Shown in pieces: positions 1,211-40,727 of a DNA stretch of 64,000 nucleotides; the first letter of the stretch is position 1, and each line of letters starts with the position of its first letter. Under the pieces are notes generated by a model, which did not search any database, was not told the DNA's origin, and saw only the letters and a list, made by a program, of their open reading frames with translations. Source of the DNA: an uncultured Candidatus Saccharibacteria bacterium (GTDB lineage: Bacteria; Patescibacteriota; Minisyncoccia; Phycocordibacterales; UBA6899); contig CAZERF010000005.1 in NCBI GenBank assembly GCA_964515375.1, positions 22,482 through 86,481 on the forward strand, written 5' to 3'. A program made the translations under genes and the position numbers.

Positions 1211-1945
1211 TCACACTCCCCACCCCTTCACACCAAGCGCCGCCTGAGCCGCCACTTGCTCCGCGTCTTGCTTGGAGCGACCGTGTCCTTTTGCGATCAA
1301 GTCACTTCCCACGTACACGCCCACTTCAAAGCTTTTGTCATGATCAGGGCCCGATTCCTTGGTGACCACATAATTTGGAGTGATTCCGATCCGCTCCTGT
1401 GCTTCCTCCTGAAAACGACTTTTTGCATCCTGCCAAAGGCGCTTTCCCACAATATCGTCGAGGCGCTTAAAAAGGCTTTTGCCGATGAAGTCGCGAGCGA
1501 TATCGTAACCCTGATCAAGGAAGATCGCGCCGATCACCGCCTCAAATGTGTTCGCCAAGATATATTGTCGCGCGCGCCCGGTATCCTTTGACTCCCCGCG
1601 CGAAAGCAAGAGGTATTCGTTCATATTCCACTCGGTCGCGGCATCGGAGATGGAGTTGGTATTCACGAGTGCGGAACGATATGCCGTGAGTCTTCCTTCC
1701 GGCTCTTCGGGATATTGCGCAAAGAGATATTCAGTGATGACAAGTTCGAGTACCGCGTCACCAAGAAATTCGAGACGTTCGTTGTGACGCATCCCCGTCC
1801 CACGGTGTTCATTCAAGTACGAACGATGTGTGAAGGCCTCACGCAACAGGGTGATGTCCTTGAACGCGACACCGATACGTGCCGCAAATTGCTCATAATC
1901 GAAAGTGGAGTGTTCCATGATGTGGAGCACCATTCTCAAAAGCAC
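1211..1945 (-). CDS. rnc: Ribonuclease III
   Basis: ERLEFLGDAVLELVITEYLF RNase III signature plus C-terminal dsRBD. The true start may be the internal Met at about 1924. Confidence 0.9.
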   Translation of the reverse strand: MLLRMVLHIMEHSTFDYEQFAARIGVAFKDITLLREAFTHRSYLNEHRGTGMRHNERLEFLGDAVLELVITEYLFAQYPEEPEGRLTAYRSALVNTNSISDAATEWNMNEYLLLSRGESKDTGRARQYILANTFEAVIGAIFLDQGYDIARDFIGKSLFKRLDDIVGKRLWQDAKSRFQEEAQERIGITPNYVVTKESGPDHDKSFEVGVYVGSDLIAKGHGRSKQDAEQVAAQAALGVKGWGV

Positions 1946-8856: not shown

Positions 8857-9040
8857 GTTCACGAGATCGCTTTGGCAACCAACCGAAGGCGACGGGAGAC
8901 CGTCGCGGATCACATCCCCAATCAAGAACACAACAAAGAGTCCTTGGGAATACTCAAGGAAATCGAGGTGGAACCGCGGCACATCGCTCGCCCTCGCAAG
9001 TACATGACCAACGTCGTGTTCTCGCGAGGGCGTTTTTGTT
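8857..9040 (+). promoter_or_regulatory. T-box riboswitch leader of thrS with terminator/antiterminator
   Basis: Three lines of evidence. First, T-box motif AATCGAGGTGGAACCGCGG (8961-8979) versus consensus AATTAGGGTGGTACCGCGG. Second, CGAGG (8964-8968) can pair with CCTCG (8992-8996), flanking a tggaacc bulge, as an antiterminator. Third, a competing 9-bp terminator cgccctcgc (8989-8997) / gcgagggcg (9024-9032) followed by TTTTT. Confidence 0.6.
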
Positions 9041-9084
9041 CCCCCTTCGACACTGTTCGCATTATTCATTCATTACCACACATC

Positions 9085-13422: not shown

Positions 13423-15378
13423 TCACGCGCGAACCTGCCAAGACGGCTGTGCCATGCGCAATGCGTCAACGACACGATCAGAAACACTGTTGGCCTCGTC
13501 GTCAGAAAGCGTCCGCTCGTCGGACTGCAGGAGCATACGAAACGCGAATGACTTGCGCGACTGCTCGGGTTGCTCAAAGACATCGATAAGGGTGAGGGCG
13601 CGAACCAGTGGACCCATCACATGACGGATCACCGTTTCAACCTCACGTGCGCGGGTCTCGATCGGAACAAAAAGAGACACATCACGAACCACCGACGGAT
13701 ACCGAGACGGCATCTTGAAAATGATCCGGTCGTCTGCACGTGCGACAAGGAGACTCATGTCAAGCTCAAGTCCGTTTAGGGTCATCGTACCGAGCACCTC
13801 ATCACCGACCATGATACTTGCGACAAGTTCTCCTCCCGCTTCTTCGAAATAAACACCAGAAACACCAAGCTCTTGAGTTATCGCCTCAATGACCCCCTTC
13901 AATACAAAAAAGTCCCGCTTCTGTTCTGACTCCTTGCGCTTGTGAAAGCCCATGCATATTGCAAAGGAACTTTCTTCAAGGAGCATCCCCTTTTCCCTTC
14001 CGAAGATGTGTCCAAACTCGAAGATACGGACATCGGAAGTATGCTTGAGGTTCTCGGCTACCGCACTCTTGAGTCCCGTCATAAGCGTGTTGCGAAGATA
14101 CTTCTTGTCCGCGGCAATCGGATTTGCAACCTCTATCTCACCCTTACCCATGAAGGCGTAGGTATAGACCTCGGAGAACCCCGCGCCAACCAGAATCGCG
14201 CGCATCAAGTCACGCACACGCCACTCGCGAGAAACGACAGGAGTTCCCGAGGTTTCGACCGGGAGCGTCGGAGTCAAGCGATGATACCCCATGAGTCGCC
14301 CCACCTCTTCGGCAAGATCCTCCGTGATGCGCAGATCGAGTCGTGGAGCAGGTATTGAAAGTGTGAACCGCGCCCCCCCTTCTTCCTGCTTTTTTATTGC
14401 GGGAATACCGAGACGCTTCCACACGCGCAGAACCTCACTTGCTGAAAAGTCGGTCCCGAGTATCCGATTGATCTCATCCGGAGTCACAGCGAGTGTGACC
14501 GGTCGTTCCTTTTTAGGATAGATGTCCACCACTCCGCCAACACGAGTTGAGGTTCCTCCTGCAAGTGAGAGAATGAGTGTCGCAACCTCAAGCAGCGCAG
14601 GAAGTGTCGCTTCGGACGTTCTCCCGGACTCGAAACGTTTTGATGCGTCGGTCTTGATCCCTAATCGCTGTGCGGTCATACGAATAGTACTTGCGTCAAA
14701 GTTCGCGGATTCGATAATGATCGTCGACGTAGCCATATCCACCTCCGCCCTTGTACCCCCCTTGATCCCGGCAAGCGCAAGCGGTGCTTCCTTGTCAGCA
14801 ATGACCATGATCGAAGGATCGAGCGAGACATACTTTCCGTCGAGTGTCGTCAAGGTCTCGGCCTCCTTTGCGGGGCGAACAATGATCGCACTCCCCGCAA
14901 CTTTTGCCTGATCGAACGCATGGAGGGGTTGCCCAGTCCGAAACATCACATAGTTTGTCGCATCCACGATATTGTTGATCGAACGCTGCCCCAATGTCTC
15001 AAGCGCCTCACGAAGCCATTTGGGAGAAGGACCGACTTTGATGCCTTGAATGATCACGCCCGAGTAGCGATGCGCGCGGGGATCACGGATCGTGACCGAG
15101 AGTTTTGGCACCTGCGCGGACGAACGAGGAAGTTTTGCTGTAGGAATACGCTTAAGCGGGAGTTCAAGTATTGCGGCAACCTCTCGAGCAACGCCCTCAT
15201 GAGAGAGGCAATCGTGCGTCCGATTAGGAAGCACCTTAAGATCGATCACAATATCACCTTTCACCTTGACGATCTCTTCGATCTCAAAGGCGTGAAAGGT
15301 CAGTGCCTCTCCCAACTTCTCGGGTTTTGGAAGCGGTGAGGCAAAATAAGACTGGAGCAGTTTGTATGAGATAAGCAT
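13423..15378 (-). CDS. pheT: Phenylalanyl-tRNA synthetase beta subunit (short form, 651 aa)
   Basis: B3/4 and B5 domain similarity (QPLHAFD..., LREALETLG). Lacks the N-terminal tRNA-binding domain. Confidence 0.9.
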   Translation of the reverse strand: MLISYKLLQSYFASPLPKPEKLGEALTFHAFEIEEIVKVKGDIVIDLKVLPNRTHDCLSHEGVAREVAAILELPLKRIPTAKLPRSSAQVPKLSVTIRDPRAHRYSGVIIQGIKVGPSPKWLREALETLGQRSINNIVDATNYVMFRTGQPLHAFDQAKVAGSAIIVRPAKEAETLTTLDGKYVSLDPSIMVIADKEAPLALAGIKGGTRAEVDMATSTIIIESANFDASTIRMTAQRLGIKTDASKRFESGRTSEATLPALLEVATLILSLAGGTSTRVGGVVDIYPKKERPVTLAVTPDEINRILGTDFSASEVLRVWKRLGIPAIKKQEEGGARFTLSIPAPRLDLRITEDLAEEVGRLMGYHRLTPTLPVETSGTPVVSREWRVRDLMRAILVGAGFSEVYTYAFMGKGEIEVANPIAADKKYLRNTLMTGLKSAVAENLKHTSDVRIFEFGHIFGREKGMLLEESSFAICMGFHKRKESEQKRDFFVLKGVIEAITQELGVSGVYFEEAGGELVASIMVGDEVLGTMTLNGLELDMSLLVARADDRIIFKMPSRYPSVVRDVSLFVPIETRAREVETVIRHVMGPLVRALTLIDVFEQPEQSRKSFAFRMLLQSDERTLSDDEANSVSDRVVDALRMAQPSWQVRA

Positions 15379-15390
15379 ACGCCAAAAAAA

Positions 15391-16236
15391 TTAGACCGAA
15401 GGGAATTGCCGAATAAGACGCAAGTCGCCGGTGTAGAGCATGCGCACATCGGGGATCCCGTATTTGAGCGCAACGAAACGATCGACCCCTCCACCGAATG
15501 CAAATCCCTGCCATTCGTCCGGATCGATCCCACCCGCGCGCAACACCTCGGGATGCACCATTCCCGCACCCATGACCTCGATCCACTTCTCTACTTTTCC
15601 TTTTGCGTCAGTCCAACCAATATCGATCTCAACCGACGGCTCCGTGAATGGGAAATAGCTGGGGCGAAAACGTACCTCCATCTTCCGACCGAACACCTGC
15701 TCAAAGAATGACGAGAGGATACCCTTGAGGTCCGAGAGTGCGACTCTTCGTCCGATCATGAGACCTTCGAATTGATAGAATTGCGTTTCGTGCGTCGCGT
15801 CGGTCGCTTCGTAACGATACACCTTCCCCGGAGCAATGATGCGGATCGGTGGTTCATGCTTCTCCATATGGCGGATCTGTACAGGGGAAGTATGGGTACG
15901 CAAAAGAAGTCGCTCCAGATTGTTCCTCCCCTTCCCGTCCGCCTTCTCCTCTGTAGGGCGGAGCCAAAACGTGTCCCACATATCACGCGCTGGGTGATCC
16001 TTCGGTATATTGAGTGCGTCAAAGTTGTAATGCTCTGTCTCCACCTCCGGTCCATCCGCAACCGAAAACCCCATTCCCCCAAAGATCGTCACGATGTCAC
16101 GCATCATGACCGTGACCGGATGTAGGTTCCCCCGTTCGGGGGGGATCCCGGGGACAGTCACGTCGATACCAAGTTTGGTGCTCATATTCATTCCGCCATT
16201 ATAGGCAAAAAGACCAAAAAGACCAAGCATTGCCAT
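15391..16236 (-). CDS. pheS: Phenylalanyl-tRNA synthetase alpha subunit (short, 281 aa)
   Basis: FDALNIPKDHPARDMWDTFW, FRPSYFPFTEPSVEID, GFAFGGGVDR class II motifs. Confidence 0.9.
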   Translation of the reverse strand: MAMLGLFGLFAYNGGMNMSTKLGIDVTVPGIPPERGNLHPVTVMMRDIVTIFGGMGFSVADGPEVETEHYNFDALNIPKDHPARDMWDTFWLRPTEEKADGKGRNNLERLLLRTHTSPVQIRHMEKHEPPIRIIAPGKVYRYEATDATHETQFYQFEGLMIGRRVALSDLKGILSSFFEQVFGRKMEVRFRPSYFPFTEPSVEIDIGWTDAKGKVEKWIEVMGAGMVHPEVLRAGGIDPDEWQGFAFGGGVDRFVALKYGIPDVRMLYTGDLRLIRQFPSV

Positions 16237-16277
16237 ACTTGGTCTTTTCTTCTACTAAACCGAAGAAAATAATTCTT

Positions 16278-19200
16278 CTAGCGTTCGATGTACTGGACGC
16301 TGGGAGGCACCCCGATGCCAGAAATGTCAAAATTTGCAAAAGAGAGTCCTGAGAGCGAGACTACTCCGCCAAACTTTCCCACCGCAGTTGGGGCAAAACG
16401 AATCACGATCGTTGTGTTCCCTTTTGAATCAAGGTGATAAGGGCATTTCCCATTAACAAGTGGCCCGGCAGAAGAAAAAATACATCTAAACATTCCACTT
16501 GCACTGTCGACGTCAAACAATCCAAATCCAAAATCAGCTGTTCCTGTATTTTGAATGGTCATTGATTGGTCGCGATATCTATTTACAACAGTTGCAGGGA
16601 ATGTTTGCCCAGAACCTAATATTGTGATGATCGACGTGAACAAACCCTCACCGTTCAGATTCATTTCAAGGGGTCCATTTATCGTATTTACTCCGGAAAA
16701 GCGAACTGTTCCGGGAAGCGACCCCGTATCCATCGGTAAGAACCGAAGCAATACATCTTTATAATTATCCTGAGAAACCGTAAACGCACACCCTGTTGCC
16801 GCCGGTTGACATGAATACGTATCACCACCATTGGAAAAGGTAACTCCGATCGACATATTACCAACTCCCACATTCCACAAACGAACATACTTCTCTTTCT
16901 CTGAAGCAAGATTTGAAGAGCCAAAATCAAGAAAATTATAAACTTCAGTATAACTATTCGGATCATCAACGCTCGTTGGCGTCAACTTCATGATCGGTGA
17001 ATTAATACCAACACCACTGATCGAACGTGATACAGAGTTATCCTCCCCATCAAATGTAATTGATGTATTAATAGGACCCGTTGCTGAAGGATAAAACGCG
17101 AAAGTAAATGAAGTGGTTGCGCCAGGCGCAAGAGAAACGACAAAACACGGAGAAGGATCGATGCACCTAAATACGGAAGTGTTCATGTATGCATCAAGAA
17201 ATACGTATGTCGCGCGGAGACCAACATTTTTGACCTCAAAAGATTTTTCAGGTGCATCACCACCCACCCTCGTCTCGGAAAAAATATGAGTAACGGGAGT
17301 GACCTCAATATACGACGAAGCGATTGAATCCCCTTCAACGTCGTAGCGTGTTGTCTTTGTCGCATAATCTCCAAAGTGATATTGGATAGTGATTTCACCA
17401 TCAAAACCACTGGCATAATTTGGTTCAAAAGCAATTTTTGCAATACGTTCTGTGTAAGTATCATTTAGAATGAACGGTCCGCAATTCTCGAAACATCTGA
17501 ATGTACTTGTTGAAGAAGTAACTTGATACCACACAGAAGTCCCCGAACTTCCTGAGCGTGCAACCCTTAATCTCAAAGACTTATTTTGAACAGGAGTATT
17601 GTAGTAAGTTGTTCCGTAATCGATAGTTCCCGAATAGACACCCGGAGTAGGAAGAGAGTACCACCCTTCATCCTCATCCTCCGCCGATATACTTACTCCT
17701 GGATTGATGCCAGTACCTTGAAACGTAACTGATGTTCCCACAATGGTGAATGACCCCGTGTGTAGACCCAGAGAGGTGGGTTTAAACGTGAATTGTGTTG
17801 TTGTTGATTGCCCTCCCCCCAGTTCAAAAGAACAGTTCTGAGCGCAAGAAAAGGCACTCGGCGTCCCAAAACTCGCGGCTGAAAGGGAGACAGTAGTTGT
17901 TCCAACTCCAATATTTCTTATCGCGTAGGATGTTGTTGCGGTTGTATTCAGTAAAACATTACCAAAATTGATCCTCGTACCTCCTGCCGCAACAAGCAAT
18001 GGTAGATCATTACCATTGGCACTTAAACTGATGCTAACTGACGGAAGTCCAGTTGGAAACTCGTTAGTCAGAGAAGCAACCGTTGATGTTGCGCCGGCGA
18101 CAAGTGGTGAAAAATGTATTGTCCCTACGAACCTATATCCCTGCGAGGGGGTCACAGAGGCGTAATGATGACCAATACCCGACACGGAGGCTGGCTCAAA
18201 CGAGAAGCCATTGCTTGGGAGACCGAGCATCCTCCCCGAAAGATCACTCAGGGAGGCTCCGCTATTTTTCACATAAACACTGATCGAAGATGTTGCGCCC
18301 ATATTCACAATACCTGCGTCCCATGAATTCCAACAAGTGTTTGACTGATAAAGACAGACCGTGAGAACAGGGATGTCCGAAACACTCGAACGCAATTCCG
18401 TTGTTGTTCCTCTACCAACCAGTGCTGTCAAAGTTGCACGATCAACGCGCGCAGGATTCGCAGATAATGGGATAAAATAAATATAAATAGCCTTTTCTTG
18501 ACCACCCAAGAGGGAGTAACGACAACCAGATATCCCACCCTGACACGAATATTCCCCTTCACCTGGAAGCACAATAGCCCCTTCAAGGAGTCCACCACCG
18601 GAGTTTTTTACCGTCAGTATCTCTGGTCCAAAATATGGGGGGTTACCCAAATAGCCAAAGCCAAAATCTACAGGACCCGAAGGAGTGATCGTTGCCTCTG
18701 GTAACACATCTTCTCCAACCGCTCTTAGTTGTATTCGCCTTGAAACAGTAGGATTGTCACATGCATAAGGAATGTTTGCAGTACAATTAAATATCACTTC
18801 CTGGTCCCATTCACCCTCTTCCACGGGGGCGATTTTTATTGTTACAGGAACATCAGTTTGCCCGGGAGCAAGCGTATCCGCACAACCAGCAGTACAATAA
18901 AACGGTGCCGAGAGCGTCGAGATATTATAATTAAGAGACCTCAAACCAGTATTGCTTACATAAAAAGTTTTTGTCTGGACATCGCCAGTAAGAATATTAT
19001 CAAAAATAGAATCTCCGGAAGGACTCACAATAAAGCGCGGGTTGTTGGGACGATCAACAGTATACTCACGACTAAGATAGAGTTGAGCCGAATAAAAATT
19101 CTTTTCTGTGGTTGCGCAAGTCTCAGAATCAGCATAAGTAGGAGGGAGGCCCCTTTTTTCTGCGGCAAGATTGATTTGATGCTTCACAGAACAGATCTCT

Positions 19201-19640
19201 CCGCCCCAAAATTCAATTTTCATCACGTGATCCCCGTCGGCCTGCCGTCCGATATTGTACGAAAAGGTACCGACAATAGCATTGTTCGGATCAGTATTTT
19301 CGGGAAGCTCAATATGACAACCCGCAGGGGCAGGACGTTGCATGCAATCAGCATCAGAATGTTCCTTATTAGGAACCTCAAAACCATCCTGCTTCACATA
19401 AATATTTCCCACCCACAACGGAGGTAGCATAAACTCTCCCGTCACAATAACATCATCCTCAAACCTGTAATCTTGCTCTCTCGCAGGAGTGATCCATTTT
19501 GTAATAATATCTCCTTCTGCAGCAACAGCATAAGAGGGAGAAATAAGACAGAGCAGTAAAACAAAAAAGAGGAGTGAAAAGAACCTCTTACGCAATTTCC
19601 TTAGTGGCAACATAATATTCTGAGAATTAAATAAGATCAC
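16278..19640 (-). CDS. Large secreted surface protein (1120 aa) with repeated beta-sandwich-like domains bearing paired cysteines
   Basis: Signal peptide; Ser/Thr/Gly/Asn-rich. Repeats of pattern F/Y-x-C-x(2-6)-C-x-F...L.PG...F.P...G...G (for example FSCAQNCSFELGGGQ, FRCFENCGPFILND, FRCIDPSPCFVVSLAPG, YSCQPAATGCAFTVS, FRCIFSSAGPLVNGKCPYHL). Clearly lower GC than flanking genes. Confidence 0.7.
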   Translation of the reverse strand: MILFNSQNIMLPLRKLRKRFFSLLFFVLLLCLISPSYAVAAEGDIITKWITPAREQDYRFEDDVIVTGEFMLPPLWVGNIYVKQDGFEVPNKEHSDADCMQRPAPAGCHIELPENTDPNNAIVGTFSYNIGRQADGDHVMKIEFWGGEICSVKHQINLAAEKRGLPPTYADSETCATTEKNFYSAQLYLSREYTVDRPNNPRFIVSPSGDSIFDNILTGDVQTKTFYVSNTGLRSLNYNISTLSAPFYCTAGCADTLAPGQTDVPVTIKIAPVEEGEWDQEVIFNCTANIPYACDNPTVSRRIQLRAVGEDVLPEATITPSGPVDFGFGYLGNPPYFGPEILTVKNSGGGLLEGAIVLPGEGEYSCQGGISGCRYSLLGGQEKAIYIYFIPLSANPARVDRATLTALVGRGTTTELRSSVSDIPVLTVCLYQSNTCWNSWDAGIVNMGATSSISVYVKNSGASLSDLSGRMLGLPSNGFSFEPASVSGIGHHYASVTPSQGYRFVGTIHFSPLVAGATSTVASLTNEFPTGLPSVSISLSANGNDLPLLVAAGGTRINFGNVLLNTTATTSYAIRNIGVGTTTVSLSAASFGTPSAFSCAQNCSFELGGGQSTTTQFTFKPTSLGLHTGSFTIVGTSVTFQGTGINPGVSISAEDEDEGWYSLPTPGVYSGTIDYGTTYYNTPVQNKSLRLRVARSGSSGTSVWYQVTSSTSTFRCFENCGPFILNDTYTERIAKIAFEPNYASGFDGEITIQYHFGDYATKTTRYDVEGDSIASSYIEVTPVTHIFSETRVGGDAPEKSFEVKNVGLRATYVFLDAYMNTSVFRCIDPSPCFVVSLAPGATTSFTFAFYPSATGPINTSITFDGEDNSVSRSISGVGINSPIMKLTPTSVDDPNSYTEVYNFLDFGSSNLASEKEKYVRLWNVGVGNMSIGVTFSNGGDTYSCQPAATGCAFTVSQDNYKDVLLRFLPMDTGSLPGTVRFSGVNTINGPLEMNLNGEGLFTSIITILGSGQTFPATVVNRYRDQSMTIQNTGTADFGFGLFDVDSASGMFRCIFSSAGPLVNGKCPYHLDSKGNTTIVIRFAPTAVGKFGGVVSLSGLSFANFDISGIGVPPSVQYIER

Positions 19641-20071
19641 TCCGAAACAACAGGCTTCCCGTCCTTAAAGGGAACCTTTCCGGTAACGACAACAGACTGA
19701 GACGAGGAGGAGAAATAGTCAAATCGTGAAAGATTTGAATCAAGCTCCAACATGCGTTGATCAAACACCTTTGCATTCTCTTCCGCTTGCTCAGGTGAAG
19801 GAGGAAGTGAACCAAAATCCTCTTCTGTTTCAGGTTGAGGCAAAAGGGGAAAAGGAAACTTTCTATTTCCCTGAAAATATACAAGCGTCATAACCGACAA
19901 AAGAACTAAAAAGGAGAACAGAAGGACATACTTGCAAACGCGACATTCCTTCATTTCGCCGATCTCGGAGTGCACATCCTGGGGTTCACTTACTCCCTCA
20001 CTAATGTTGTCTTTCATAGATTTTCTCATTATATCTCTGGGACCACACTTGAAGCAATGTTGTCTATCCAC
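19637..20071 (-). CDS. Small membrane protein with N-terminal Zn-ribbon-like CxxC...CxxC and one TM helix
   Basis: MDRQHCFKCG...ECRVCKYVLLFSFLVLLSVMTLVYF. Stop overlaps the start of the downstream giant gene (ATGA). Confidence 0.45.
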   Translation of the reverse strand: MDRQHCFKCGPRDIMRKSMKDNISEGVSEPQDVHSEIGEMKECRVCKYVLLFSFLVLLSVMTLVYFQGNRKFPFPLLPQPETEEDFGSLPPSPEQAEENAKVFDQRMLELDSNLSRFDYFSSSSQSVVVTGKVPFKDGKPVVSE

Positions 20072-20123
20072 AAAATGGCGAATGCGTCACGAATGAGCAG
20101 GTAGGGGGATCTTGTATCTCAGA

Positions 20124-20133
20124 ATTATAAGCA
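20124..20133 (-). promoter_or_regulatory. Extended -10 promoter TGcTTATAAT for the Zn-ribbon/giant-protein operon
   Basis: Minus strand: ttttttgTGCTTATAATtc. Nearly identical to the element at 38265-38273. Confidence 0.45.
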
Positions 20134-20182
20134 CAAAAAAGTAGTATCAGAAAGGCGGCAAACCCGAGGTTGGCCCGGTATC

Positions 20183-20300
20183 CATTTGAGTGTGCTCGTT
20201 CTGTGGAGCCGGCAGTCAGGCTTGAACTGACGACCTACGGTTTACAAAACCGTTGCTCTACCAACTGAGCTATGCCGGCATTACGCGAGCACACTCAAAT
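20183..20300. repeat. Perfect 16-bp inverted repeat (catttgagtgtgctcg / cgagcacactcaaatg) bracketing tRNA-Thr
   Basis: Arms at 20183-20198 and 20285-20300. The spacer contains the complete tRNA. Confidence 0.8.
20204..20280 (-). tRNA. tRNA-Thr (anticodon UGU), CCA encoded
   Basis: GCCGGCAUAGCUCAGUUGGUAGAGCAACGGUUUUGUAAACCGUAGGUCGUCAGUUCAAGCCUGACUGCCGGCUCCA folds as a cloverleaf: 7-bp acceptor stem, GCUC/GAGC D-stem, ACGGU/ACCGU anticodon stem, loop UUUGUAA, T-arm GUCAG-UUCAAGC-CUGAC. Confidence 0.9.
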
Positions 20301-20310
20301 GAATCCAACC

Positions 20311-20348
20311 TTACAAAACCGTTGCTCTACCAACTGAGCCATGCCGGC
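20311..20348 (-). pseudogene. Truncated copy of the tRNA-Thr 5' half (38 nt, 1 mismatch)
   Basis: GCCGGCAUGGCUCAGUUGGUAGAGCAACGGUUUUGUAA then diverges. No anticodon-stem 3' strand or T-arm. Confidence 0.55.
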
Positions 20349-20506
20349 ATTTATGAACCCATGACAAAATATCCAATCTCTCAAAAAAAACAACTACTCT
20401 GCAAATGCCCCGACTAACTTACAAGAGCATACCAAATAGTTCAAACCTTGCAACAAGACCACTCCGTAATACCGGAAATAAGCACAGTTGCAAAATAACT
20501 TGTTGC

Positions 20507-20896
20507 TCAGACCCCTCCGTCAGTGCGTCCTCGCGAGCGCATGCGGCGACGCAACAATTCCTGATGTTCGGCGATATGCTTCAAAAAGAAAGAGGATGCG
20601 CTGCGGCGATCAATGGTGATCCTTCCGAACACATGAGCAGAGAGACGTTCGCGCATCACACGGAAGACATGAAGAACCCTCTGTACCGGGGGGCGCAGCG
20701 CGAGAAACATCCGCGCGACAATGTAAAGCAAGCGGTGGCCCAGATCATACATCTCTCCCGAAAAAAATTCGGTAAAACTTTGCGGGATCGCAGACGTATT
20801 TCCGCGCAACGTGCGACGACGCAAAAGGACTCCGAGCGCAAGCGAGAGCGCAAGAACACCAAATGATATGATCCAACTGAGCGAAAGTGCTGACAT
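20507..20896 (-). CDS. Hypothetical small membrane protein downstream of tsf
   Basis: 129-aa ORF with an N-terminal TM segment. Only its operon position supports it. Confidence 0.25.
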   Translation of the reverse strand: MSALSLSWIISFGVLALSLALGVLLRRRTLRGNTSAIPQSFTEFFSGEMYDLGHRLLYIVARMFLALRPPVQRVLHVFRVMRERLSAHVFGRITIDRRSASSFFLKHIAEHQELLRRRMRSRGRTDGGV

Positions 20897-20956
20897 GTCG
20901 TCGTTATCTATTATAGCAGCTCAGGCGTCGAAGTTCGAGCGCGTGAGAAGCTTGAA

Positions 20957-21556
20957 CTACTTACCCACCGCGAAGCGCGCAAAACGAATGATCTCGGTAT
21001 TCTCTCCAAACTTCTGCACCGCACGCTTCACTAGATCGCCCACGGTAATATCCGGATCCTTCACGAAAGGTTGTTCAAGCAACACCGATTCCGCAAAATA
21101 CGCGGCGATCTTTCCTTCAAGTGCCTTCTTCTTGATCTCCTCGGGCTTTCCCGCCATGGTCTTCTCTACTTCCTCTTCAAAGAAGGAAGCAGCCTTTGCG
21201 CGATCTTCTTCCGTGATGTCATTCTGCGTACGATACTTGGGATTAAGCGCAACAACATGCATCGCGATCTCATAGGCAAGATGCTTGAATTCCTCGTTCT
21301 TTGCCACAAAATCAGTCTCACACGCAAGCTCCACGATAGCACCGACGGAGTTGTTGCCGTGAATATAGGACGCGACGACTCCCGAGCCAAGAGCACGGTC
21401 ACCCTTCTTTGCGGCGATCTCTCCGCTCTTCTTGCGCAACATCATGCGAGCCTTCTCCATGTCGCCTCCCGCCTCTTCGAGAGCCTTCTTGCATTGCATG
21501 ACCGAAACACCGGTCTCGTCACGAAGCTCCTTGATCGCATCCATGCTGATTTCCAT
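20957..21556 (-). CDS. tsf: Elongation factor Ts
   Basis: MEISMDAIKELRDETGVSVMQCKKALEEAGGDMEKA UBA-like N-terminus. Short (about 200 aa) form. Confidence 0.9.
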   Translation of the reverse strand: MEISMDAIKELRDETGVSVMQCKKALEEAGGDMEKARMMLRKKSGEIAAKKGDRALGSGVVASYIHGNNSVGAIVELACETDFVAKNEEFKHLAYEIAMHVVALNPKYRTQNDITEEDRAKAASFFEEEVEKTMAGKPEEIKKKALEGKIAAYFAESVLLEQPFVKDPDITVGDLVKRAVQKFGENTEIIRFARFAVGK

Positions 21557-21631
21557 ATGATTGAGAAAAGATAAGAACGAGTAAGACAAACGAAAACACC
21601 CTGAGGAAGGTAGGCCTTCCGTAGACGAGCA

Positions 21632-22342
21632 CTACGCGCGCGCGCGAACGCCCTCCTGATAGCTCTCCTTGAGCTCTTCGAGGAAATAGGCCACACTCTT
21701 CAATGCCGAATCATTGGCAAGGATCGGATGAGTGATCTCGTCCTTGTTGCAGTCGGAGTTGAGGATCGCAAAGGTTTCAACACGCATCTTCTTTGCTTCA
21801 GTGACGGCAATGTGTTCCGCGCGAGGATCAACGATCACGATCGCCCCGGGAATCCCCTCGAGGCTCGAGACTCCACCGAACTCGGCATGGAGTTTCGCCA
21901 TCTCACGCTCAAAGAGCAAGCGCTCTTTCTTGGTGTACTTTCCGAGATCTCCCTTTGCGAATTTGTCCGAGAGGTCCTTGAGGCGCGCAATGCGCTTCTT
22001 GATCTCATTCCAATTGGTGAGCATTCCACCGACCCACCGTTCATTGACGTACGGTGCGTTCATTGAATGAGCGACCGACTCCACTGTGCCGCGCACTTCA
22101 TCCTTGGTTCCGACAAAGAGGACAACCTTCCCCAACTTACCAAGCTCGACCATGCGCGCCTTTGCGGCGACAAGCATGCGCTGTGTCTCCTCGAGATTGA
22201 TGATATCGGCGCCATTCTTTGCGCCATAGAGATACCCCTTGACCGACGAGTGTCGGCGGGCGCGCGAGTATCCAAAGTGGGCGCCCACTTTGAACATTTC
22301 CTCGATCTGTGCGGTGTCTACGTGATTTTTTTCTTCAGTCAT
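21632..22342 (-). CDS. rpsB: 30S ribosomal protein S2
   Basis: MLVAAKARMVELGKLGKVVLFVGTK..., VIVDPRAEHIAVTEAKK. Conserved rpsB-tsf pair. Confidence 0.95.
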   Translation of the reverse strand: MTEEKNHVDTAQIEEMFKVGAHFGYSRARRHSSVKGYLYGAKNGADIINLEETQRMLVAAKARMVELGKLGKVVLFVGTKDEVRGTVESVAHSMNAPYVNERWVGGMLTNWNEIKKRIARLKDLSDKFAKGDLGKYTKKERLLFEREMAKLHAEFGGVSSLEGIPGAIVIVDPRAEHIAVTEAKKMRVETFAILNSDCNKDEITHPILANDSALKSVAYFLEELKESYQEGVRARA

Positions 22343-22425
22343 ACTAATTTTTATGATTTCGAGAGTCTAACAAAAAGAGAGGAGATTGGCAAGGCAGACG
22401 CGATGTATGCTCGTAATTTGACACC

Positions 22426-23445
22426 TTATTCGTCCTCAGGATCACCCTCTGCGGAAAACTCCCCTTCGCGCGCGCGATCAGTCAACGTGTCGACGATTTC
22501 GTCAATTCCCCCTTGAAATATTCCTTCAATATTGTGCCATGACTCGCGAATACGGTGATCGGTCACACGATCTTGGAGGGTGTTGTAAGTACGGATCTTT
22601 GCGGAACGATCAGCATTTCCGACACTACTCCGCAGGCTTTCGTTCTTTTTTGCTTCATCTTCTTCTTTCATCTGCTCGAGCTTGGCAACAAGAATACTCA
22701 TCGCCTTCTCTCGATTCTTCAACTGCGAGCGCTCAACAGAGCAATGCACATGAATCCCCGTCGGCTTGTGAACCAAGTGCACCGCGGTCTCCACTTTGTT
22801 CACATTCTGTCCACCCGCACCACCGGAGCGTGTAAAGGTCATTTCAAGATCCGCGGGATTGATGACGACCGAAGCTCGGGTGCGGATCGGCAAAACAAGG
22901 ACTGCGGCGGTTGAGGTATGAATACGCCCGGACTTTTCTGTCGCGGGAATGCGTTGAATACGATGCACTCCCGTTTCGTAACGCAACGCATCGTACACAC
23001 CCTGCCCTTCGATCTCAAATGTCGCTTCCTTGTATCCACCCAACTCACTCTCCGAGTCGTCGACAGAACGAAAACGCCAACCTTTTTTTGTGGCATACCG
23101 CTCGTACATGAGCGCAAGATCCTGCGCAAAGATCGCCGCCTCTTCGCCACCCACGCCGGCACGAACCTCAAGCACGACCTCCTTTGGTTTCTCCTCTTCA
23201 ACCTTCGCTTCCTCCGCGACCTGCTCCATCTTTAACAAAAGATCACTCATGGTCGTTACGAGTGACGCACGCTCCCCTTCGGCGAGTGCGTCAATTTCCG
23301 GATCGACCCCCATCATCGCCTCAAGCTCCGCAAGTTGCACGGAAAGACGCTCGTATTCTTCAGCGAGATACTTGGTACGATAATTCTCTTTGTATGGAAT
23401 AAGATCGACGCTTGTCATGGTGTCCTGCAAACAAAAACCCGCCAA
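22426..23445 (-). CDS. prfA: Peptide chain release factor 1
   Basis: GGQ motif ([16 protein letters not shown]). RF1-type PAT tripeptide ([14 protein letters not shown]) rather than RF2 SPF. Confidence 0.85.
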
Positions 23446-23475
23446 ACAAGAAGCGGGTCGTTGTATCCTAAAGGG

Positions 23476-23694
23476 TTACTTCTTCTTCGCAGCCGCCGTG
23501 CGTGCCTTGAATTTCTCAATGCGTCCCGCCGTGTCGGCGATCTTCTCCGTTCCGGTGAAGAGCGGGTGACACTGCGAACAGATCTCAACCTCGATCTTCT
23601 CCATGGTCGATCCGACCGTAAACTCGGCGCCGCACGCGCAGGTGACCGCCGCGGACGTGAAATAGGTAGGGTGTGTTTCAGTCTTCATAGGCAC
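23476..23694 (-). CDS. rpmE: 50S ribosomal protein L31
   Basis: MKTETHPTYFTSAAVTCACG...CSQCHPLFTG. Confidence 0.9.
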   Translation of the reverse strand: MPMKTETHPTYFTSAAVTCACGAEFTVGSTMEKIEVEICSQCHPLFTGTEKIADTAGRIEKFKARTAAAKKK

Positions 23695-23739
23695 ACACTC
23701 TAGCAGAAAGAGCTTAAATTGACAAGAAGCGCGAGGTAC

Positions 23740-24918
23740 TCATGCCGCCTCGCGCCATCCGTCTCCGAGAAGATTCTCTTCAATATCATGTCGAATACAA
23801 GCGAGCGCGTGACGAACAAAACGAAGATCGTCCCGATCGGAAGAAGTGAACTCCTCTCGATCAAGAACAGAATGAAGCTCATCATCCACCCAAAGATACG
23901 CCGCTTCAGGGTCAATGCGCCCCATTTGTGCCTCCTCCATAATGATCCGCAAGACTCGCGGCATGGAAAATCCCTTTTTGTACGAACGACAAGCGGAGAG
24001 CGCTTGCTCAATATCCGCAATATGGAGCAGCTCCGCAACATCAACGCTCGAATGAAGTGCGCCAAGTGCGATCGGGTAGTGTGTTCCTTCTTTGTGGTAA
24101 TTGTGGTGTGCTCCGGCAAGCTCGCTCTCCACGCGCAGTCCTTCTGACTCGAGGATCTGACGAGAATGGAGTTCGTGCTCCTTGATGATATCCATCAGGG
24201 ATAAGTCTCCGCTGAATCCGCGCGTCTCAAGCTCTATTAGCTCTTCGGAAGAAAGAACGAGTCGCGACGGGACAAAGTGAACCGCCCGCAAATGATGCTC
24301 GCGAAGATACTCACTGATGGCACTAGATTCCTCGGGAAGAGGAGCACCCCCCGCTCGTTCAACTCGCGTGACGACATGAGAGTCCTGTTCTTCGAAAAGA
24401 AGATCACGCAGATAGAGATCCATGGCGGAATCGTTCATTGGGTGATCGATAACAAAGCGAGGGATCTCAACCTTGCCAATATCATGAAGCAAGCACGCGC
24501 GAAAGAACTCCTCAGGAGAGACAAGCTCACGGGCAAAAAGTTCCTCAAGGATGATCCCGGAAGAAAGGCGCTTCGTCACCTTCTCCCGTGCAATACGAAA
24601 TGTTTCGACACAATGTGAAGCGGTCCCGGGATCGTAGAGATCGAGGATCGTAAGCATCTCCATATCGCGCTCGGTCAACTCTCCCATTTCGGAAAGTTCA
24701 TCGTGATACCGCTTCATCACCCGCGCGACCTCATCAGAAAGAAGCCCTTCCATTTGAAGTTCATGATGAATAGATCGGAAATTACCCTTCCTTGCGATAG
24801 CACGAGCGCGCTCATCACCCTCCATTTCAATATGCGAGTATGCACCGTTATGTTCAAGACTTTGCGCTTCGTGCGGGGATATCATGATAGGTTCGACGAG
24901 TGAGGAATTGGCTTGCAA
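23740..24918 (-). CDS. HD-domain phosphohydrolase, HD-GYP-like (possibly degenerate)
   Basis: LLHDIGK...; AGAHHNYHKEGTHYP resembles HHExxDGxGYP. Confidence 0.55.
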   Translation of the reverse strand: MQANSSLVEPIMISPHEAQSLEHNGAYSHIEMEGDERARAIARKGNFRSIHHELQMEGLLSDEVARVMKRYHDELSEMGELTERDMEMLTILDLYDPGTASHCVETFRIAREKVTKRLSSGIILEELFARELVSPEEFFRACLLHDIGKVEIPRFVIDHPMNDSAMDLYLRDLLFEEQDSHVVTRVERAGGAPLPEESSAISEYLREHHLRAVHFVPSRLVLSSEELIELETRGFSGDLSLMDIIKEHELHSRQILESEGLRVESELAGAHHNYHKEGTHYPIALGALHSSVDVAELLHIADIEQALSACRSYKKGFSMPRVLRIIMEEAQMGRIDPEAAYLWVDDELHSVLDREEFTSSDRDDLRFVRHALACIRHDIEENLLGDGWREAA

Positions 24919-24924
24919 AAATAA

Positions 24925-24975
24925 AGAAAAGGGCCAAGGCCCTCCTCACCTATACCCTCATTATACCACAAAATG
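24925..24975 (-). terminator. Terminator after the lytic transglycosylase gene
   Basis: Minus strand gaGGGCCttGGCCCttttctttattttt. Confidence 0.4.
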
Positions 24976-25019
24976 AGTCACTTTGTCTTGAGTTATACAC
25001 AACCAAAAAAAGCATGCTC

Positions 25020-26402
25020 TTAGGTGTTTTGAAGAGGATCGATCATTGTCGTCTGAATAACCTCCGCCTTTTGCATGACCTGTGTACCATACGTTGCGGC
25101 CCAACTCGACTGACTACAACGACTTCCGGAGAAATAACGACACGCCGCGTCGCGTTCGGCGCTATAGGAGTTTGGCTTCGCACCAAGATCGGTCAAATAG
25201 AACGCTGCAGCCATAAAGGCGTCACGAGGATTCCACGGATCGGCATATGAAGTACCAAGCGCTGAAGTGATACGCTTCGTGAAGAGTACCCACGTTGAGG
25301 GAATGAACTGGGCGGGTCCCATCGCCCCTCCCCAACCAATCTCCTGAGGACATGACACGCGCGTCTTGAAGGGGTCGCGCCCGAGTGCTTCCGTGATCTG
25401 GAGGAAAGGCTCCACATCGCGACCCGGTTTCATGACCCGATCAAAAGCACGACCGGTATTCATACCTACTCCGGCACCGGTCTTTGTATTACGCAAATAA
25501 CACGAACCGACATTCTTTCCAAAACTCGACTCCTGCTGGAACACCGCGAGAAGGAAGGCGGGGCGAATTCCGGTACGTGCAGAAACCACATTCGCGTAAT
25601 CAAGCGCTTGTCCGAACGGAATACCGCCCGAGTCGGAGTCACGGAGTGCAAAGAGCGCGGCACGGATCTCGGCGGCACGCTTTTGCCGATCGGCAAGAAC
25701 ACTCTGATATTCCTTGGTCTTGTTGTTGGTGATCGCGAGTAACTTCTTTTTCTCCGCCTGATTAGACTGAACGAGTTGCTTGTTGCGCTCGAGTTCTGCC
25801 TTGGCGTCGATCTGGGCACGCTGACGTTCTTCCAATTCTTCCTGTGCCGCTTCCGTTTCAGCGCGCGCATTCCTCAAGGCATCCGAGGAATCCTTGAGCG
25901 CGAGACGGAGCGCTTCGTAGGAATCAAGATCGGTAAAGAATTCCGAGATGGAAGAACCGGAAAGAATGCTTTCCGTTAAGGATGCTTGAGAAAGTTCGTT
26001 GGTCTTGCGGATCAGCTGCGCAAGAGAACGTCGCTCGTTCTCAAGACGCGTAGAGAGATCCTTTACTGTTTGAGACTTCTCGGAGATCGACGAAGAAAGG
26101 CGTGCGATCTCGAGATTCCTCGCTTTGATATTGAGATTTGCCTTGTCGATGTTGGCGTTGAGGAGCTTGATGTCCCGGTCAAGAGTGTTCTTTTGCCCTT
26201 TGAGACCCGTGATCGTGTTGTTGAGTCCGCTGATCTCAAGATTGATGGCATTAAGCTCTTGCTCAAGTGCGGCCTGACGATCCACCGTGCTTGCCGCAGT
26301 CTGCGCATACGCGTACTCAGGTAGAGAAAAGCATACCCCAAGCAGGAAGAGCGTCGTCATAAAGAAAAGGGCGGCGTTTTGCTGCACACGTTGCATACAC
26401 TT
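25020..26402 (-). CDS. Secreted coiled-coil protein with C-terminal lytic transglycosylase (MltB/SLT_2-like) domain
   Basis: Signal peptide, about 200 aa of heptad-rich coiled coil, then LLAVFQQESSFG...GAMGPAQFIPSTW. Confidence 0.6.
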   Translation of the reverse strand, partial: KCMQRVQQNAALFFMTTLFLLGVCFSLPEYAYAQTAASTVDRQAALEQELNAINLEISGLNNTITGLKGQKNTLDRDIKLLNANIDKANLNIKARNLEIARLSSSISEKSQTVKDLSTRLENERRSLAQLIRKTNELSQASLTESILSGSSISEFFTDLDSYEALRLALKDSSDALRNARAETEAAQEELEERQRAQIDAKAELERNKQLVQSNQAEKKKLLAITNNKTKEYQSVLADRQKRAAEIRAALFALRDSDSGGIPFGQALDYANVVSARTGIRPAFLLAVFQQESSFGKNVGSCYLRNTKTGAGVGMNTGRAFDRVMKPGRDVEPFLQITEALGRDPFKTRVSCPQEIGWGGAMGPAQFIPSTWVLFTKRITSALGTSYADPWNPRDAFMAAAFYLTDLGAKPNSYSAERDAACRYFSGSRCSQSSWAATYGTQVMQKAEVIQTTMIDPLQNT

Positions 26403-26462
26403 CATATAACGATTATACCCCGATTGCATGACACAATTCAACACGTTTTTCCCATTCTGCCA

Positions 26463-26492
26463 AAAAAACCGCGTAAAACGCGGTGTTTTTGG
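26463..26492. terminator. Bidirectional terminator downstream of rplY
   Basis: A7-accgcgt-aaa-acgcggt-T5. Confidence 0.6.
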
Positions 26493-26515
26493 CAGAACTG
26501 ATCGAGAGCGAGATG

Positions 26516-27147
26516 CTATGCCGTCTCTTCGTCCTCCTTCTTTCCCTTCTTTTCTACCTCAATAGAGGCAAGATCGGGTTCAGTCGTGACTGCTTCGGAC
26601 TCCTCGGACGGGCGAGAAACCACCGCCACCAACTCCGTCAAGGCAACATGAGTACTCACACCTTCACCGAGATCGAGGTCGGCAAGCGTGATCTGCGCAT
26701 CAAGCGTTGAGAGAGTTTCAAGATCAACGGTGATCTGAGCCGGGAGCTTCTCCGGGAGCGCGCTGATGCGCACTTCGTGAAGCACACGGACAACAATGCC
26801 GCCTTCCTTCTCGACCGGTGCGGTACCAACGAAGTGAAGCGGGACATCAACCTCAATTTTGTGGTCTTTCGCGGTGATGTAGAAGTCCACGTGGACCGGA
26901 TCACCGAGTACCGGGTCGAGCGCGACATCATGAATGAGCGCGTTGAAGGTCCCCTTCGGAGTCACTAATGAAAAGATCGTAGACTCCCCCGCTTGCTCCA
27001 AGAGCTTGATAAAAGGAAGCCGTTCGACGCTCACTGAGGTCGATTCCTGGCCCTGTCCATAGAACACCGCGGGAATCTTCCCCTGCTTGCGGATGATCTT
27101 TGGATTTACTTTCACGTCTCGCGTTTCCGCGTGTAGCGTTATCATAA
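26516..27147 (-). CDS. rplY: 50S ribosomal protein L25 / general stress protein Ctc
   Basis: MITLHAETRDVKV...IPAVFYGQGQE..., acidic C-terminal tail. Start taken at MITLHAE rather than the ORF start at 27316. Confidence 0.8.
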
Positions 27148-27209
27148 TCGCAAAAATTATCGTGTAATCCGTACACCCTACCACGCCCCGGCGAATATGC
27201 GCAAGTATA

Positions 27210-28415
27210 TTAGCGCGCGGCGGACTGCAACCGGGCGATCTCCCGCTCAAGTTCTGCGATGAGCGCGACGATCTGTTCCATGATCTTTGCAATAAGTGCG
27301 CGACGTTCGGTCTCATTCAAGGAAGAAGAGGTCGAGGGTGTCGGTGTCGCCGGGACGGAGGGCGCGACCACCTCTCCGGAGAAACGTATCTCTGCGGAAG
27401 ATGACACCGAACCCCGAGCGCCTGTGCAAGAAATACCGAACGTCATGTCTTTGGTGATCTGAGGGAAAAAGTGCGTTCCGGAAAGCGCGAGTGTTCCTTC
27501 CCAATCTCCGGTCGCACTGCACTGATCGACATTCGCGCTTGTCCATTCGATCGTAACTCCTTCACCTGTTCCAAGTACATCCTTCGGTGAAGTTATGCTC
27601 ACACGCGGACGCGCCGCGACCGGAATAGTCGGCTCACCAACATTCCCCGCCGCGTAGAGCGCAACGATCTCGTCACCGGAAAGTGTGCGGCCATAGATAC
27701 GGAGGTCGTCGATATATCCGTTCCAAGAACCTGACCGAGGAGAGGCATCGGAGAAGCCAATGCGGTACATCAACTCATGGTTTGTGAGATTCGGAAACCA
27801 TCGTCCGATATTGTCTCCGGCAATATCAAGCGCGATCCCATTCACGTACATACGATAACCGACGCCGTTTGCCGTAAAGACGAGGTGCACCCACTCATTG
27901 CGCGGGATGAGATACACTCCTTGCGCCTTGCGATCGTTCCCGTCCGTGCGGTCGCGAAACTGGAGATACGGACGTCCGTCGTTGTCGACCGCCAAAAGCA
28001 TATACACACTGCGATCTGACGTTGACCGGGCGGAGAACAAGATATTTCGCTCTGAGAGTTCGTTCATCTTGAGCCAGACCGCAAGCGTCCCTTCTCCACC
28101 AAGGAGAAATTCATTAGGAAGCGCGACCCCCTGCTCACCGACTCCGTCCATTGCAAGCGCTGTTCCGATCTTGCCGGACGCCCAGCCAAAATCGGTCGAA
28201 GATCCCATGAACGCTCCGTTCGCACCGCCCATATCTCCGGCCGAACGTCCTCCTCCTTCGTCGAACTTAAAGTGATGGGTCGGACCCTCTGTTTCCGCAA
28301 ATGCGATCGCTCCGAAGGAGAGCATGACCACACTCAAGACGGCAACACCGACCGCTGAAATACGTTTGTTTTGCATGATGTTCATAGTGAACGAATAATG
28401 ATTCATAAATTTCAC
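27210..28415 (-). CDS. Secreted concanavalin-A-like / LamG-type lectin-fold protein
   Basis: Signal peptide; LRIYGRTLSGDEIVALYAAGN jelly-roll signature; C-terminal coiled coil. Confidence 0.5.
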   Translation of the reverse strand: MKFMNHYSFTMNIMQNKRISAVGVAVLSVVMLSFGAIAFAETEGPTHHFKFDEGGGRSAGDMGGANGAFMGSSTDFGWASGKIGTALAMDGVGEQGVALPNEFLLGGEGTLAVWLKMNELSERNILFSARSTSDRSVYMLLAVDNDGRPYLQFRDRTDGNDRKAQGVYLIPRNEWVHLVFTANGVGYRMYVNGIALDIAGDNIGRWFPNLTNHELMYRIGFSDASPRSGSWNGYIDDLRIYGRTLSGDEIVALYAAGNVGEPTIPVAARPRVSITSPKDVLGTGEGVTIEWTSANVDQCSATGDWEGTLALSGTHFFPQITKDMTFGISCTGARGSVSSSAEIRFSGEVVAPSVPATPTPSTSSSLNETERRALIAKIMEQIVALIAELEREIARLQSAAR

Positions 28416-38196: not shown

Positions 38197-38264
38197 GATC
38201 TTTCTTCCTCAATGTACGATCCGGAGTCTGCCGGAGCAGTTACAAGGTTATGTTGCTATCTTTT

Positions 38265-38273
38265 ATTATAGCA
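38265..38273 (-). promoter_or_regulatory. Extended -10 promoter TGcTATAAT with T-rich upstream tract
   Basis: Minus strand ttcttttttgTGCTATAATaaaag, about 70 nt upstream of the 38196 ATG. Confidence 0.45.
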
Positions 38274-39626: not shown

Positions 39627-39629
39627 TTT

Positions 39630-40687: not shown

Positions 40688-40727
40688 GTCCGTCGACTTA
40701 TAAGCATCATCGCCCTACGCTGAAGGG

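Follow-up and report, generated by a model that had tools for sequence, protein, structure and literature searches.

In bacteria, the leader-trailer stems of ribosomal RNA (rRNA) are formed by long-range pairing between a 5' leader and a 3' trailer around a stable RNA, and they are cut by RNase III. Here we describe a structure of this kind around a transfer RNA (tRNA) gene: the tRNA-Thr(UGU) gene of a 64,000-nucleotide stretch (hereafter the window) of contig CAZERF010000005.1, which lies between two complementary arms and is preceded by what is evidently the relic 5' half of an earlier tRNA-Thr copy. The likeness to the rRNA stems extends to compensatory conservation, to a length of ~25 bp with an asymmetric bulge, and to the presence of an RNase III gene; the differences are that the helix surrounds a lone tRNA between mRNA genes, that it occurs only in copies with an upstream relic half, that one relative has lost an arm, and that cleavage is putative.

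Other described systems share parts of this layout. At the tRNA-Thr(GGU) locus of Caldiarchaeum subterraneum a 5' tRNA-Thr fragment likewise lies upstream of an intact tRNA-Thr gene, for which the authors proposed that foreign DNA had entered the tRNA gene, the population being heterogeneous at this locus (PMC3293823). That locus is archaeal, a 1.8-kb recombinase-encoding element separates fragment and gene, and the intact gene has introns of a sort excised by archaeal splicing enzymes (PMC3293823), whereas the window belongs to a bacterium and has a 31-nt gap from relic to gene, no recombinase, and a leader-trailer helix. Among archaea and red algae, disrupted tRNA genes include some with multiple introns as well as split and permuted ones (PMC4390854, PMC3978253); they resemble the present case in their breaks at the anticodon or D loop and in the complementary flanks that unite the pieces, but they require a bulge-helix-bulge motif, not seen here, and a splicing endonuclease, and the hosts here are bacterial and the insert holds a complete tRNA of the same anticodon. 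The attachment (att) sites of integrases of the anticodon-loop class share with our locus the anticodon-loop breakpoint, a direct partial copy and a variable island nearby. In classical att sites it is the 3' part of the gene that is duplicated, and the island lies between gene and fragment; in the window a 5' half is left beside a complete replacement gene. SegB is a free-standing GIY-YIG homing endonuclease of the T-even phage tRNA cluster (PMC13096335). It provides a parallel for a nuclease tied to tRNA genes: GIY-YIG open reading frames (ORFs) stand beside partial tRNA repeats at 15 of the loci that we examined (see below). The window and its relatives of the same type contain no such gene, and the link to our locus is by analogy only. 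SegB reportedly drives the duplication or amplification of tRNA-containing segments. Our search of the literature on nested, tRNA-in-tRNA genes in bacteria found no description of them, most subscription-journal papers lying outside its coverage; work on the way in which tRNA genes become disrupted has to date concentrated on archaea and algae, and a bacterial system allows its steps to be compared between close relatives.

By comparing the locus with its counterparts in related genomes, assisted by RNA folding and by a wider scan of metagenomic contigs, we hypothesize that it is a stack of tRNA-Thr(UGU) copies, in which a replacement scar and a maintained leader-trailer helix lie together in the genome of a Lloydbacteria-like member of the candidate phyla radiation (CPR), a reading that we regard as fairly probable. 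The sequences suggest that bacterial tRNA genes can be overwritten one within another, and that a single-copy essential tRNA gene in bacteria of reduced genome can be replaced repeatedly, with layered half-genes remaining.

The live tRNA-Thr gene, whose acceptor stem GCCGGCA/TGCCGGC defines the allele class that we call cassette-type, is the sole tRNA called by ARAGORN in the 64 kb. The initial annotation, made from the sequence alone, had placed this tRNA within a perfect 16-bp inverted repeat and had noticed a 38-nt pseudo-copy of its 5' half with one mismatch, and both descriptions are borne out: ARAGORN and Rfam agree on the tRNA, the inverted repeat (20180-20198 versus 20286-20304) is 19 nt long, with a single T/G mismatch and 16 nt of perfect match at its core, and the direct repeat (20242-20282 versus 20311-20351) covers 41 nt with one mismatch, spanning a 3-nt leader and tRNA positions 1-38. 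The repeats are not attributable to chance, because no match is expected for a 25-mer from the 5' part of the tRNA and because the exact 16-mer of the arm, sought throughout the 64-kb window, was found at this locus only, a result that also bears on dispersed palindromes of the MITE/REPIN type, which would be marked by many genomic copies of one terminal repeat. In the wider data, partial tRNA-Thr copies keep to the vicinity of the gene, with seven matches within 500 nt of it, as opposed to none in 669 kb further off.

The relic half terminates at the 38/39 border, in the anticodon loop, and keeps a leader of its own, which is closer to the upstream arms of two related genomes (28/30 identical in L215, 27/31 in L206) than to the live arm of the window (only 21/35). 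No partner arm for this leader was found in the window, and no outer 3' half of a tRNA in the 64 kb; beyond the T-rich trailer of the live gene the match to L215, L210 and L206 ends, the outer 3' half is absent, and a variable island starts. In L210, the outer half (GCCGCCT...ATACACTTGTAA; GCCGCCTTAGCTCAGTTGGTAGAGCAATACACTTGTAA) matches the live tRNA-Thr found in L002, L006 and L217 at 36/38 positions, as against only 30/38 for the inner gene of L210 itself, with the cassette joined at position 38 as in the window. Since relic and live gene of L210 are thus different alleles, the pseudo-half is not simply a local duplicate, and the collapsed tandem duplication that had been offered as one explanation falls short in this simple form; rather, to judge by these comparisons, the pseudo-half is evidently the relic of an earlier gene copy that was severed at 38/39.

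Versions of the layout are present in five related genomes (L004, L206, L208, L210 (L210/L211) and L215), in the order 5' relic or remnant, upstream arm, tRNA, downstream arm with a 6-7 nt bulge, and outer helix of 6-9 bp. Both arms occur in four of the relatives, with an inner helix of 18-20 bp, an outer helix of 6-9 bp and a bulge of 6-7 nt on the 3' side; the bulge at the equivalent site reads ACCTAG, CACCAGG, AACGGG or GCCCGG, and the outer-helix strand GATTGG (L206 and L215), GGTTGA (L210) or GATCGA (L004, inside a 9-bp helix). The remaining relative, L208, has a remnant of the upstream arm only. The relic halves of L208 and L210 are cut at the matching junction, that of L004 is cut at position 35, and L215 has a decayed one, which its arms enclose together with the tRNA. 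A downstream 3' half is retained in L206 and L215: that of L215 pairs with the outermost 5' relic, and after that of L206 the trailer arm occurs a second time. All six genomes with a tRNA of the GCCGG[A/C]A type carry a relic or remnant, and none of the GCCRCCT-type relatives (~10 examined) has arms.

Folding of the region as RNA yields a long helix (25 bp in the minimum-free-energy (MFE) structure) that encloses the cloverleaf, at -84 kcal/mol (z = -3.7), with 0 of 200 shuffled sequences as good. In a hand-curated, structure-informed alignment of the window with L004, L210 and L206, 13 of the 24 helix positions are altered on both strands yet remain paired, and 94 of the 96 cells are paired (four cells are G.T and one, at the bulge edge, is A.C), while arms swapped across genomes pair at only 15-22 of the 24 positions; two further compensatory positions were seen by eye in L215. 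The initial annotation had proposed a processing stem of the RNase III type, and a structural role for the leader-trailer helix is indeed supported by the compensatory change in relatives, by a length sufficient for RNase III, and by the rnc gene whose presence in the window had been correctly noted. The helix is a plausible substrate for RNase III, and the rnc product the candidate nuclease. In the sense-strand comparison, the RNA duplex is better than its antisense in 4 of 4 differing genomes of the window type, by 0.3-3.1 kcal/mol only, and this asymmetry points weakly to a helix at the RNA level in these genomes; in the wider nested set described below, the energies are split 8 to 8.

What such a helix could do is suggested by the predicted ensemble, in thermodynamic folding that takes no account of co-transcriptional order. 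When neither arm is missing, the mean pair probability of the inner acceptor stem is 0.97; upon in silico removal of the downstream arm, the relic half captures the tRNA's 3' half (0.80 versus 0.10), and upon shuffling of that arm neither acceptor stem appears in the predicted fold. The helix may therefore be a clamp that insulates the live tRNA from the relic half on a shared transcript, a specific role that lends itself to testing and that would account for the joint occurrence of helices and relics. This joint occurrence is itself observed: leader-trailer repeats scoring at least 12 surround 6 of 380 distinct tRNAs (all the loci fetched, a sample biased to loci bearing 5' duplicates), all six with a partial 5' tRNA piece just upstream, and among ~70 tRNA-Thr loci a comparable helix was found only in L004 and the window. 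Such helices are tied to relic halves and are not generic to tRNAs, so that the finding by which the initial annotation would have been refuted, the same repeat at all tRNAs of relatives, did not emerge; for annotators, half-tRNAs and helices belong together. We infer a function of the helix at the RNA level, as clamp or processing site, and not in DNA.

The history that we propose begins with an earlier copy, which would have been severed at 38/39 upon the arrival of the cassette, or of a 69-nt unit of arm, leader and 5' half; the relic would have kept its own leader and lost its 3' half and trailer, with the variable surface-protein island now in their place. In the live cassette-type tRNA-Thr the leader would pair with the trailer in helices of 6 bp and 19 bp with a 6-nt bulge (Table 1), so that today the live tRNA would be enclosed as a separate folding domain, with the relic half kept off its 3' half, and the helix would offer RNase III a double-stranded site for release of the tRNA from flanking RNA. 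For the placement of the newer copy, several mechanisms are candidates. A nuclease-made break in the anticodon loop may have been followed by capture of a fragment with a complete tRNA, for which the small GIY-YIG ORFs beside partial tRNA repeats at 15 loci are a lead, none of them being in the window or its five relatives. Site-specific recombination could have acted at the junction of position 38 with GRTTGR, common to three outer alleles (window, L210 and L215), and in L215 and L206 both junctions may share an overlap of 3 nt, TAA. The two 38-nt direct repeats could have allowed slippage, by which 69-nt units were added or removed, and the arrays of L194 (below) show that this takes place. 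Homologous replacement may, lastly, have been anchored on half-tRNAs, which would explain the well-kept relic and leader of the window.

Several observations weigh against this reading. An inverted repeat acting in DNA would yield identical covariation, and the role in RNA is therefore tentative. L208 retains a relic without the downstream arm, and the helix is therefore dispensable at least for a time, which is also where the processing-stem proposal of the initial annotation is weakened. The inserts of L215 and L206 run ~70 nt beyond the downstream arm, so that the insert does not simply end with the arms. At position 6 the relic goes with the live gene, both having C in the window and both A in L004, and such tracking requires gene conversion, a recent event or selection. 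There is no recombinase, transposase or homing nuclease near the locus, and duplication of a 69-nt unit alone could give the anatomy of the window without any insertion.

Table 1. Coordinates of the features of the tRNA-Thr locus and of associated genes (positions in the window unless a contig is named)
Feature	Coordinates	Strand	Basis
Live tRNA-Thr(UGU), encoded CCA	20204..20279	minus	ARAGORN; Rfam RF00005, 72.4 bits
Upstream (5') arm of inner helix, ATTCATTTGAGTGTGCTCG	20286..20304	minus	Inverted repeat; paired in MFE fold; compensatory changes in relatives
Spacer between upstream arm and tRNA, 6 nt, CGTAAT	20280-20285	minus	
Outer 6-bp helix, upstream strand GGTTGG, abutting relic position 38	20305..20310	minus	Read from sequence; element also in relatives
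Downstream (3') arm of inner helix, CGAGCACACTCAAATGGAT	20180..20198	minus	Inverted repeat; RNA fold; compensatory changes
Spacer between tRNA and downstream arm, CAGAA	20199-20203	minus	
Bulge on 3' side of helix, 6 nt, ACCGGG	20174..20179	minus	Read from sequence; equivalent bulge in relatives
Outer 6-bp helix, downstream strand CCAACC	20168..20173	minus	Sequence, fold, compensatory changes
T-rich trailer past helix	20131..20167	minus	Site of terminator hairpin in L215, L210, L206 (alignment)
Putative relic 5' half (positions 1-38) of earlier tRNA-Thr(UGU) copy	20311..20348	minus	Direct repeat; 37/38 identical to live gene (A9 to G)
Relic's own leader, 30 nt, GATTGGATATTTTGTCATGGGTTCATAAAT	20349..20378	minus	Homologue of upstream helix arm of L215, L206
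Possible third, decayed tRNA 5'-half relic, TTTGCAGAGTAGTTGTTTT vs TTGGTAGAGCAACGGTTTT, 13/19	20379..20400	minus	Local alignment; weak
rnc (RNase III + dsRBD), outside the locus proper	1211..1945	minus	Pfam PF14622, PF00636, PF00035; signature NERLEFLGDA
GIY-YIG ORFs in other contigs	L018 6984-7313; L063 6913-7224; L074 5854-6148; L075 4791-5072		
Further loci with GIY-YIG ORFs	L102, L107, L109, L139, L151, L152, L155, L166, L177, L198, L200		

Related arrangements are found well beyond these genomes. A scan of metagenomic contigs for two D-arm copies 28-58 nt apart returned at least 120 loci, and in more than half of the matches listed the first D-arm copy lay outside any tRNA called by ARAGORN; among the same matches, most such first copies are 5' pieces, partial or degenerate, with a complete tRNA (Thr, Lys, Phe, Val or Asn) downstream. 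Clear nesting is seen in about a dozen of the listed loci, with an outer 5' piece, an arm, a complete inner tRNA, the complementary arm and an outer 3' piece in succession; nesting was found in L070, a Taylorbacteria genome in which it affects the same tsf-linked locus, and in at least 10 metagenomic loci. Inner and outer anticodons are equal and acceptor stems different in L121, L124, L128 and L185, the insertion points differ (anticodon arm or D loop), and L107 contains up to three levels of nesting. When inserts were removed in silico, six outer genes (those of L070, L185, L124 and L149, and two levels of L107) gave a valid tRNA with matching anticodon, and others proved degenerate; ARAGORN with introns allowed did not call the outer genes. 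Tandem arrays of a 5' tRNA piece plus arm, with periods of 49-71 nt, also occur, in L194, L178, L127, L135, L188 and L169: that of L194 (5060-5400) comprises seven units upstream of an intact tRNA, and in the arrays of L178, L127, L135, L188 and L169 no inner tRNA was called. The hosts are bacterial: L107, L171 and L194 have a class II tRNA-Tyr downstream. In viral contigs the cassette tRNA was absent, and the architecture pattern gave two matches only, at full tandem-tRNA spacing (91-92 nt).

Small GIY-YIG nuclease ORFs (~80-100 aa, Pfam PF01541) adjoin tRNA genes with partial copies at 15 of the loci examined (Table 1); in L074 a frameshifted one occupies the gap between a 5' relic and an intact tRNA-Thr, and L155 has tandem units of a nuclease gene plus a 5'-truncated tRNA-Lys. 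A duplication associated with a homing endonuclease, recognized by an adjacent nuclease gene, was rejected as an identity for the locus, no GIY-YIG ORF being found in the window, L004, L206, L208, L210 or L215. In some relic copies of tRNAs, the D loop and the anticodon or variable region hold GC-rich inserts that consist of a hairpin only (L063 7300-7420; L074 5844-5920; L079 ~7130-7200; L171, minus strand, ~8956-9080; L054 7228-7407, where an inverted D-arm copy abuts a direct one); these may be arms left once the inner tRNA was lost, or a separate small palindromic element.

A wider suggestion, which we put forward tentatively and consider somewhat doubtful, is that hairpin-flanked tRNA genes are a family of self-replacing cassettes in CPR and other small-genome bacteria, which would insert cleanly into the essential tRNA gene of their own kind, at its anticodon or D loop, and assume its function, and would thereby yield both the tRNA-inside-tRNA 'Russian dolls' and the arrays of 5' relics. 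Within this suggestion, the cassettes might be non-autonomous mobile elements of a new kind, possibly moved by way of breaks made by the small GIY-YIG nucleases, or else the intact outer genes might be rescued in RNA, which would be a protein-dependent, intron-like bacterial system. If the cassettes are mobile, they would represent a new type of element, one whose cargo is the replacement of the gene that it destroys.

A rival reading would make the arms of the window DNA-level ends (recombinase or transposase sites, or an insertion hairpin) of a small non-autonomous mobile cassette that homes into the cognate tRNA gene, at the anticodon or D loop, and takes over its function, any RNA helix being incidental. 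It would account for the clean nested inserts with arms abutting both outer halves (L070, L121, L124, L128, L185 and L087), the nesting of up to three levels in L107, the shared junction of the three outer alleles, the patchy occurrence among equally distant relatives, the lack of strand asymmetry in the wider set, and the restriction of leader-trailer repeats to sites with a relic; nonetheless we think it unlikely, as the arm sequence drifts with pairing kept, unlike the protein-binding end sites of one family, the inserts of L215 and L206 overrun the downstream arm, target-site duplication is not consistent, no window-type locus has an enzyme gene, the arm 16-mer is unrepeated in 64 kb, and viral contigs are devoid of the cassette tRNA. 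To a purely local history, in which replication slippage duplicated 69 nt in tandem (arm, leader and tRNA 1-38) and left neutral remains with no foreign or second allele, we allow only a slight chance. The relic and live units share the order of their parts, with leaders homologous at 21/35, the halves of the window differ by 1 nt only, and tandem arrays of just such units exist (seven copies in L194; also L107); but the leaders are 60% identical and the tRNA halves 97%, the relic leader is nearer to the arms of L215 and L206 than to its own live arm, the relic of L210 is a different allele, and outer 3' halves persist in L215 and L206. Slippage may have added a unit, yet it cannot account for everything.

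That the locus is a scar of integration had also been suggested by the initial annotation, and this stands in so far as it appears to be the scar of an earlier copy cut at 38/39. The classical form of the idea, by which the surface-protein island integrated site-specifically in the anticodon loop of the tRNA-Thr gene and the half-tRNA is a displaced att fragment, is very improbable. The anticodon loop is said to have been listed by Williams in 2002 as a known integrase sublocation in tRNA genes, and the breakpoint at position 38, the direct partial copy, the many contigs that end at the locus, the possible TAA overlap of L215 and L206, and the variable island adjoining the tRNA (in L002, L005 and L006 pheS comes straight after it, unlike in the window, L003 or L206) would all fit. 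Against it, a 5' half is duplicated 31 nt from a complete gene, where in the classical pattern a 3' part brought by the element is fused to the 5' part already in place, the island is not enclosed by the pair of repeats and is of the same type beside the non-cassette tRNAs of L003 and L217, an integrase domain was found in 0 of the 13 neighbouring ORFs scanned (13423-27316), and the 64 kb contain no 3' fragment. An intron-like or split gene, with a functional outer tRNA from whose transcript the arm-tRNA-arm insert is removed while the arms unite the outer halves, would agree with the six outer genes that are intact after in silico removal, with no nucleotide lost or gained; it is inapplicable in the window, where the outer 3' half is absent, and becomes exceedingly improbable given junctions without bulge-helix-bulge geometry (by eye), bacterial hosts (EF-Ts, release factor and class II tRNA-Tyr), no group I intron match and several degenerate outer genes. 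An assembly artefact, whether a chimeric join or a graph loop at the repeat, can scarcely be credited. Two independent assemblies of identical sequence do break exactly where the repeats are bounded (JGI contig L001 stops as the direct repeat starts; Logan contig L205 begins 1 nt past the upstream arm), but such breaks are expected of a real repeat, and the architecture recurs in five other species, with different assemblers, different sequence and compensatory changes. The stack of copies with its maintained helix remains the reading that we prefer.

Three further identities were tried and rejected. The archaeal type of bulge-helix-bulge intron or split tRNA would have two 3-nt bulges 4 bp apart, and the junctions of the nested relatives are, by eye, internal loops such as 3x8 and 8x3. 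A group I intron, with a ribozyme core of ~200 nt or more, compares with an insert of 31 nt plus a tRNA, and Rfam, at both gathering and E-value thresholds, matched the tRNA only, with no group I intron and no known cis-element. An integron attC-like reading of GGTTGG...CCAACC fails because the order of the R-boxes is reversed. A scan for promoter and terminator consensus found no promoter and, at the T-rich trailer, no terminator, and by eye no convincing -35/-10 pair lies within the arms.

The closest named EF-Ts sequences are those of Candidatus Lloydbacteria and Paceibacterota, both within the CPR (Patescibacteria). Genes on the same strand follow the order prf, rpsB, tsf, orf129, relic and tRNA, orf144, a 1120-aa protein with immunoglobulin-like (Ig-like) domains, pheS and pheT, and the succession of tsf, a small ORF and tRNA-Thr(UGU) is conserved in ~70 of 80 related species; the interval from tRNA to pheS is variable. 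As the initial annotation had it, a surface-protein region of lower GC content follows the tRNA: 16278-20071 (minus strand; GC 0.44-0.47) encodes orf144 and the Ig-like protein, which is of the ASH/Cep192 type, and is an insertion relative to L002, L005 and L006. L003 and L206 have homologues of ~30% identity at the equivalent place, L217 has there an Ig-like protein that shares the Pfam domains, and the region looks like a fast-evolving surface-protein island. Upstream of the relic, the possible third relic (20379..20400) corresponds in position to the outermost relic of L215.

Many independent assemblies have contigs (L001, L004, L008, L010, L014, L032, L068, L072, L082, L205 and L209) that end within a few hundred bases of the tRNA-Thr gene, which fits repeats and strain variation at the locus disrupting assembly; the repeats would thus explain why assemblies of these organisms break here. 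Relatives without the cassette show, by eye only, apparent strongly decayed 5' relics upstream of tRNA-Thr, at ~5040-5066 in L002 (e.g. GCCGCCTCAGCTGTCTTGGTAGATATC), at ~1606-1630 in L003, and ~65 nt upstream of the tRNA in L221 and L223; nhmmer is too insensitive for decayed relics shorter than 25 nt. The sequence TCTAACGGG stands directly 5' of ATG starts in several Paceibacteria loci (L002, around 4079, 5465 and 6354; L075, L079 and L108) and also makes up the arms by which the nested tRNAs are flanked in L087 and L128; it could be a translation or processing signal. Finally, the window has a second stretch of low GC content at 38001-42000 (0.41-0.46, as against ~0.52 elsewhere).

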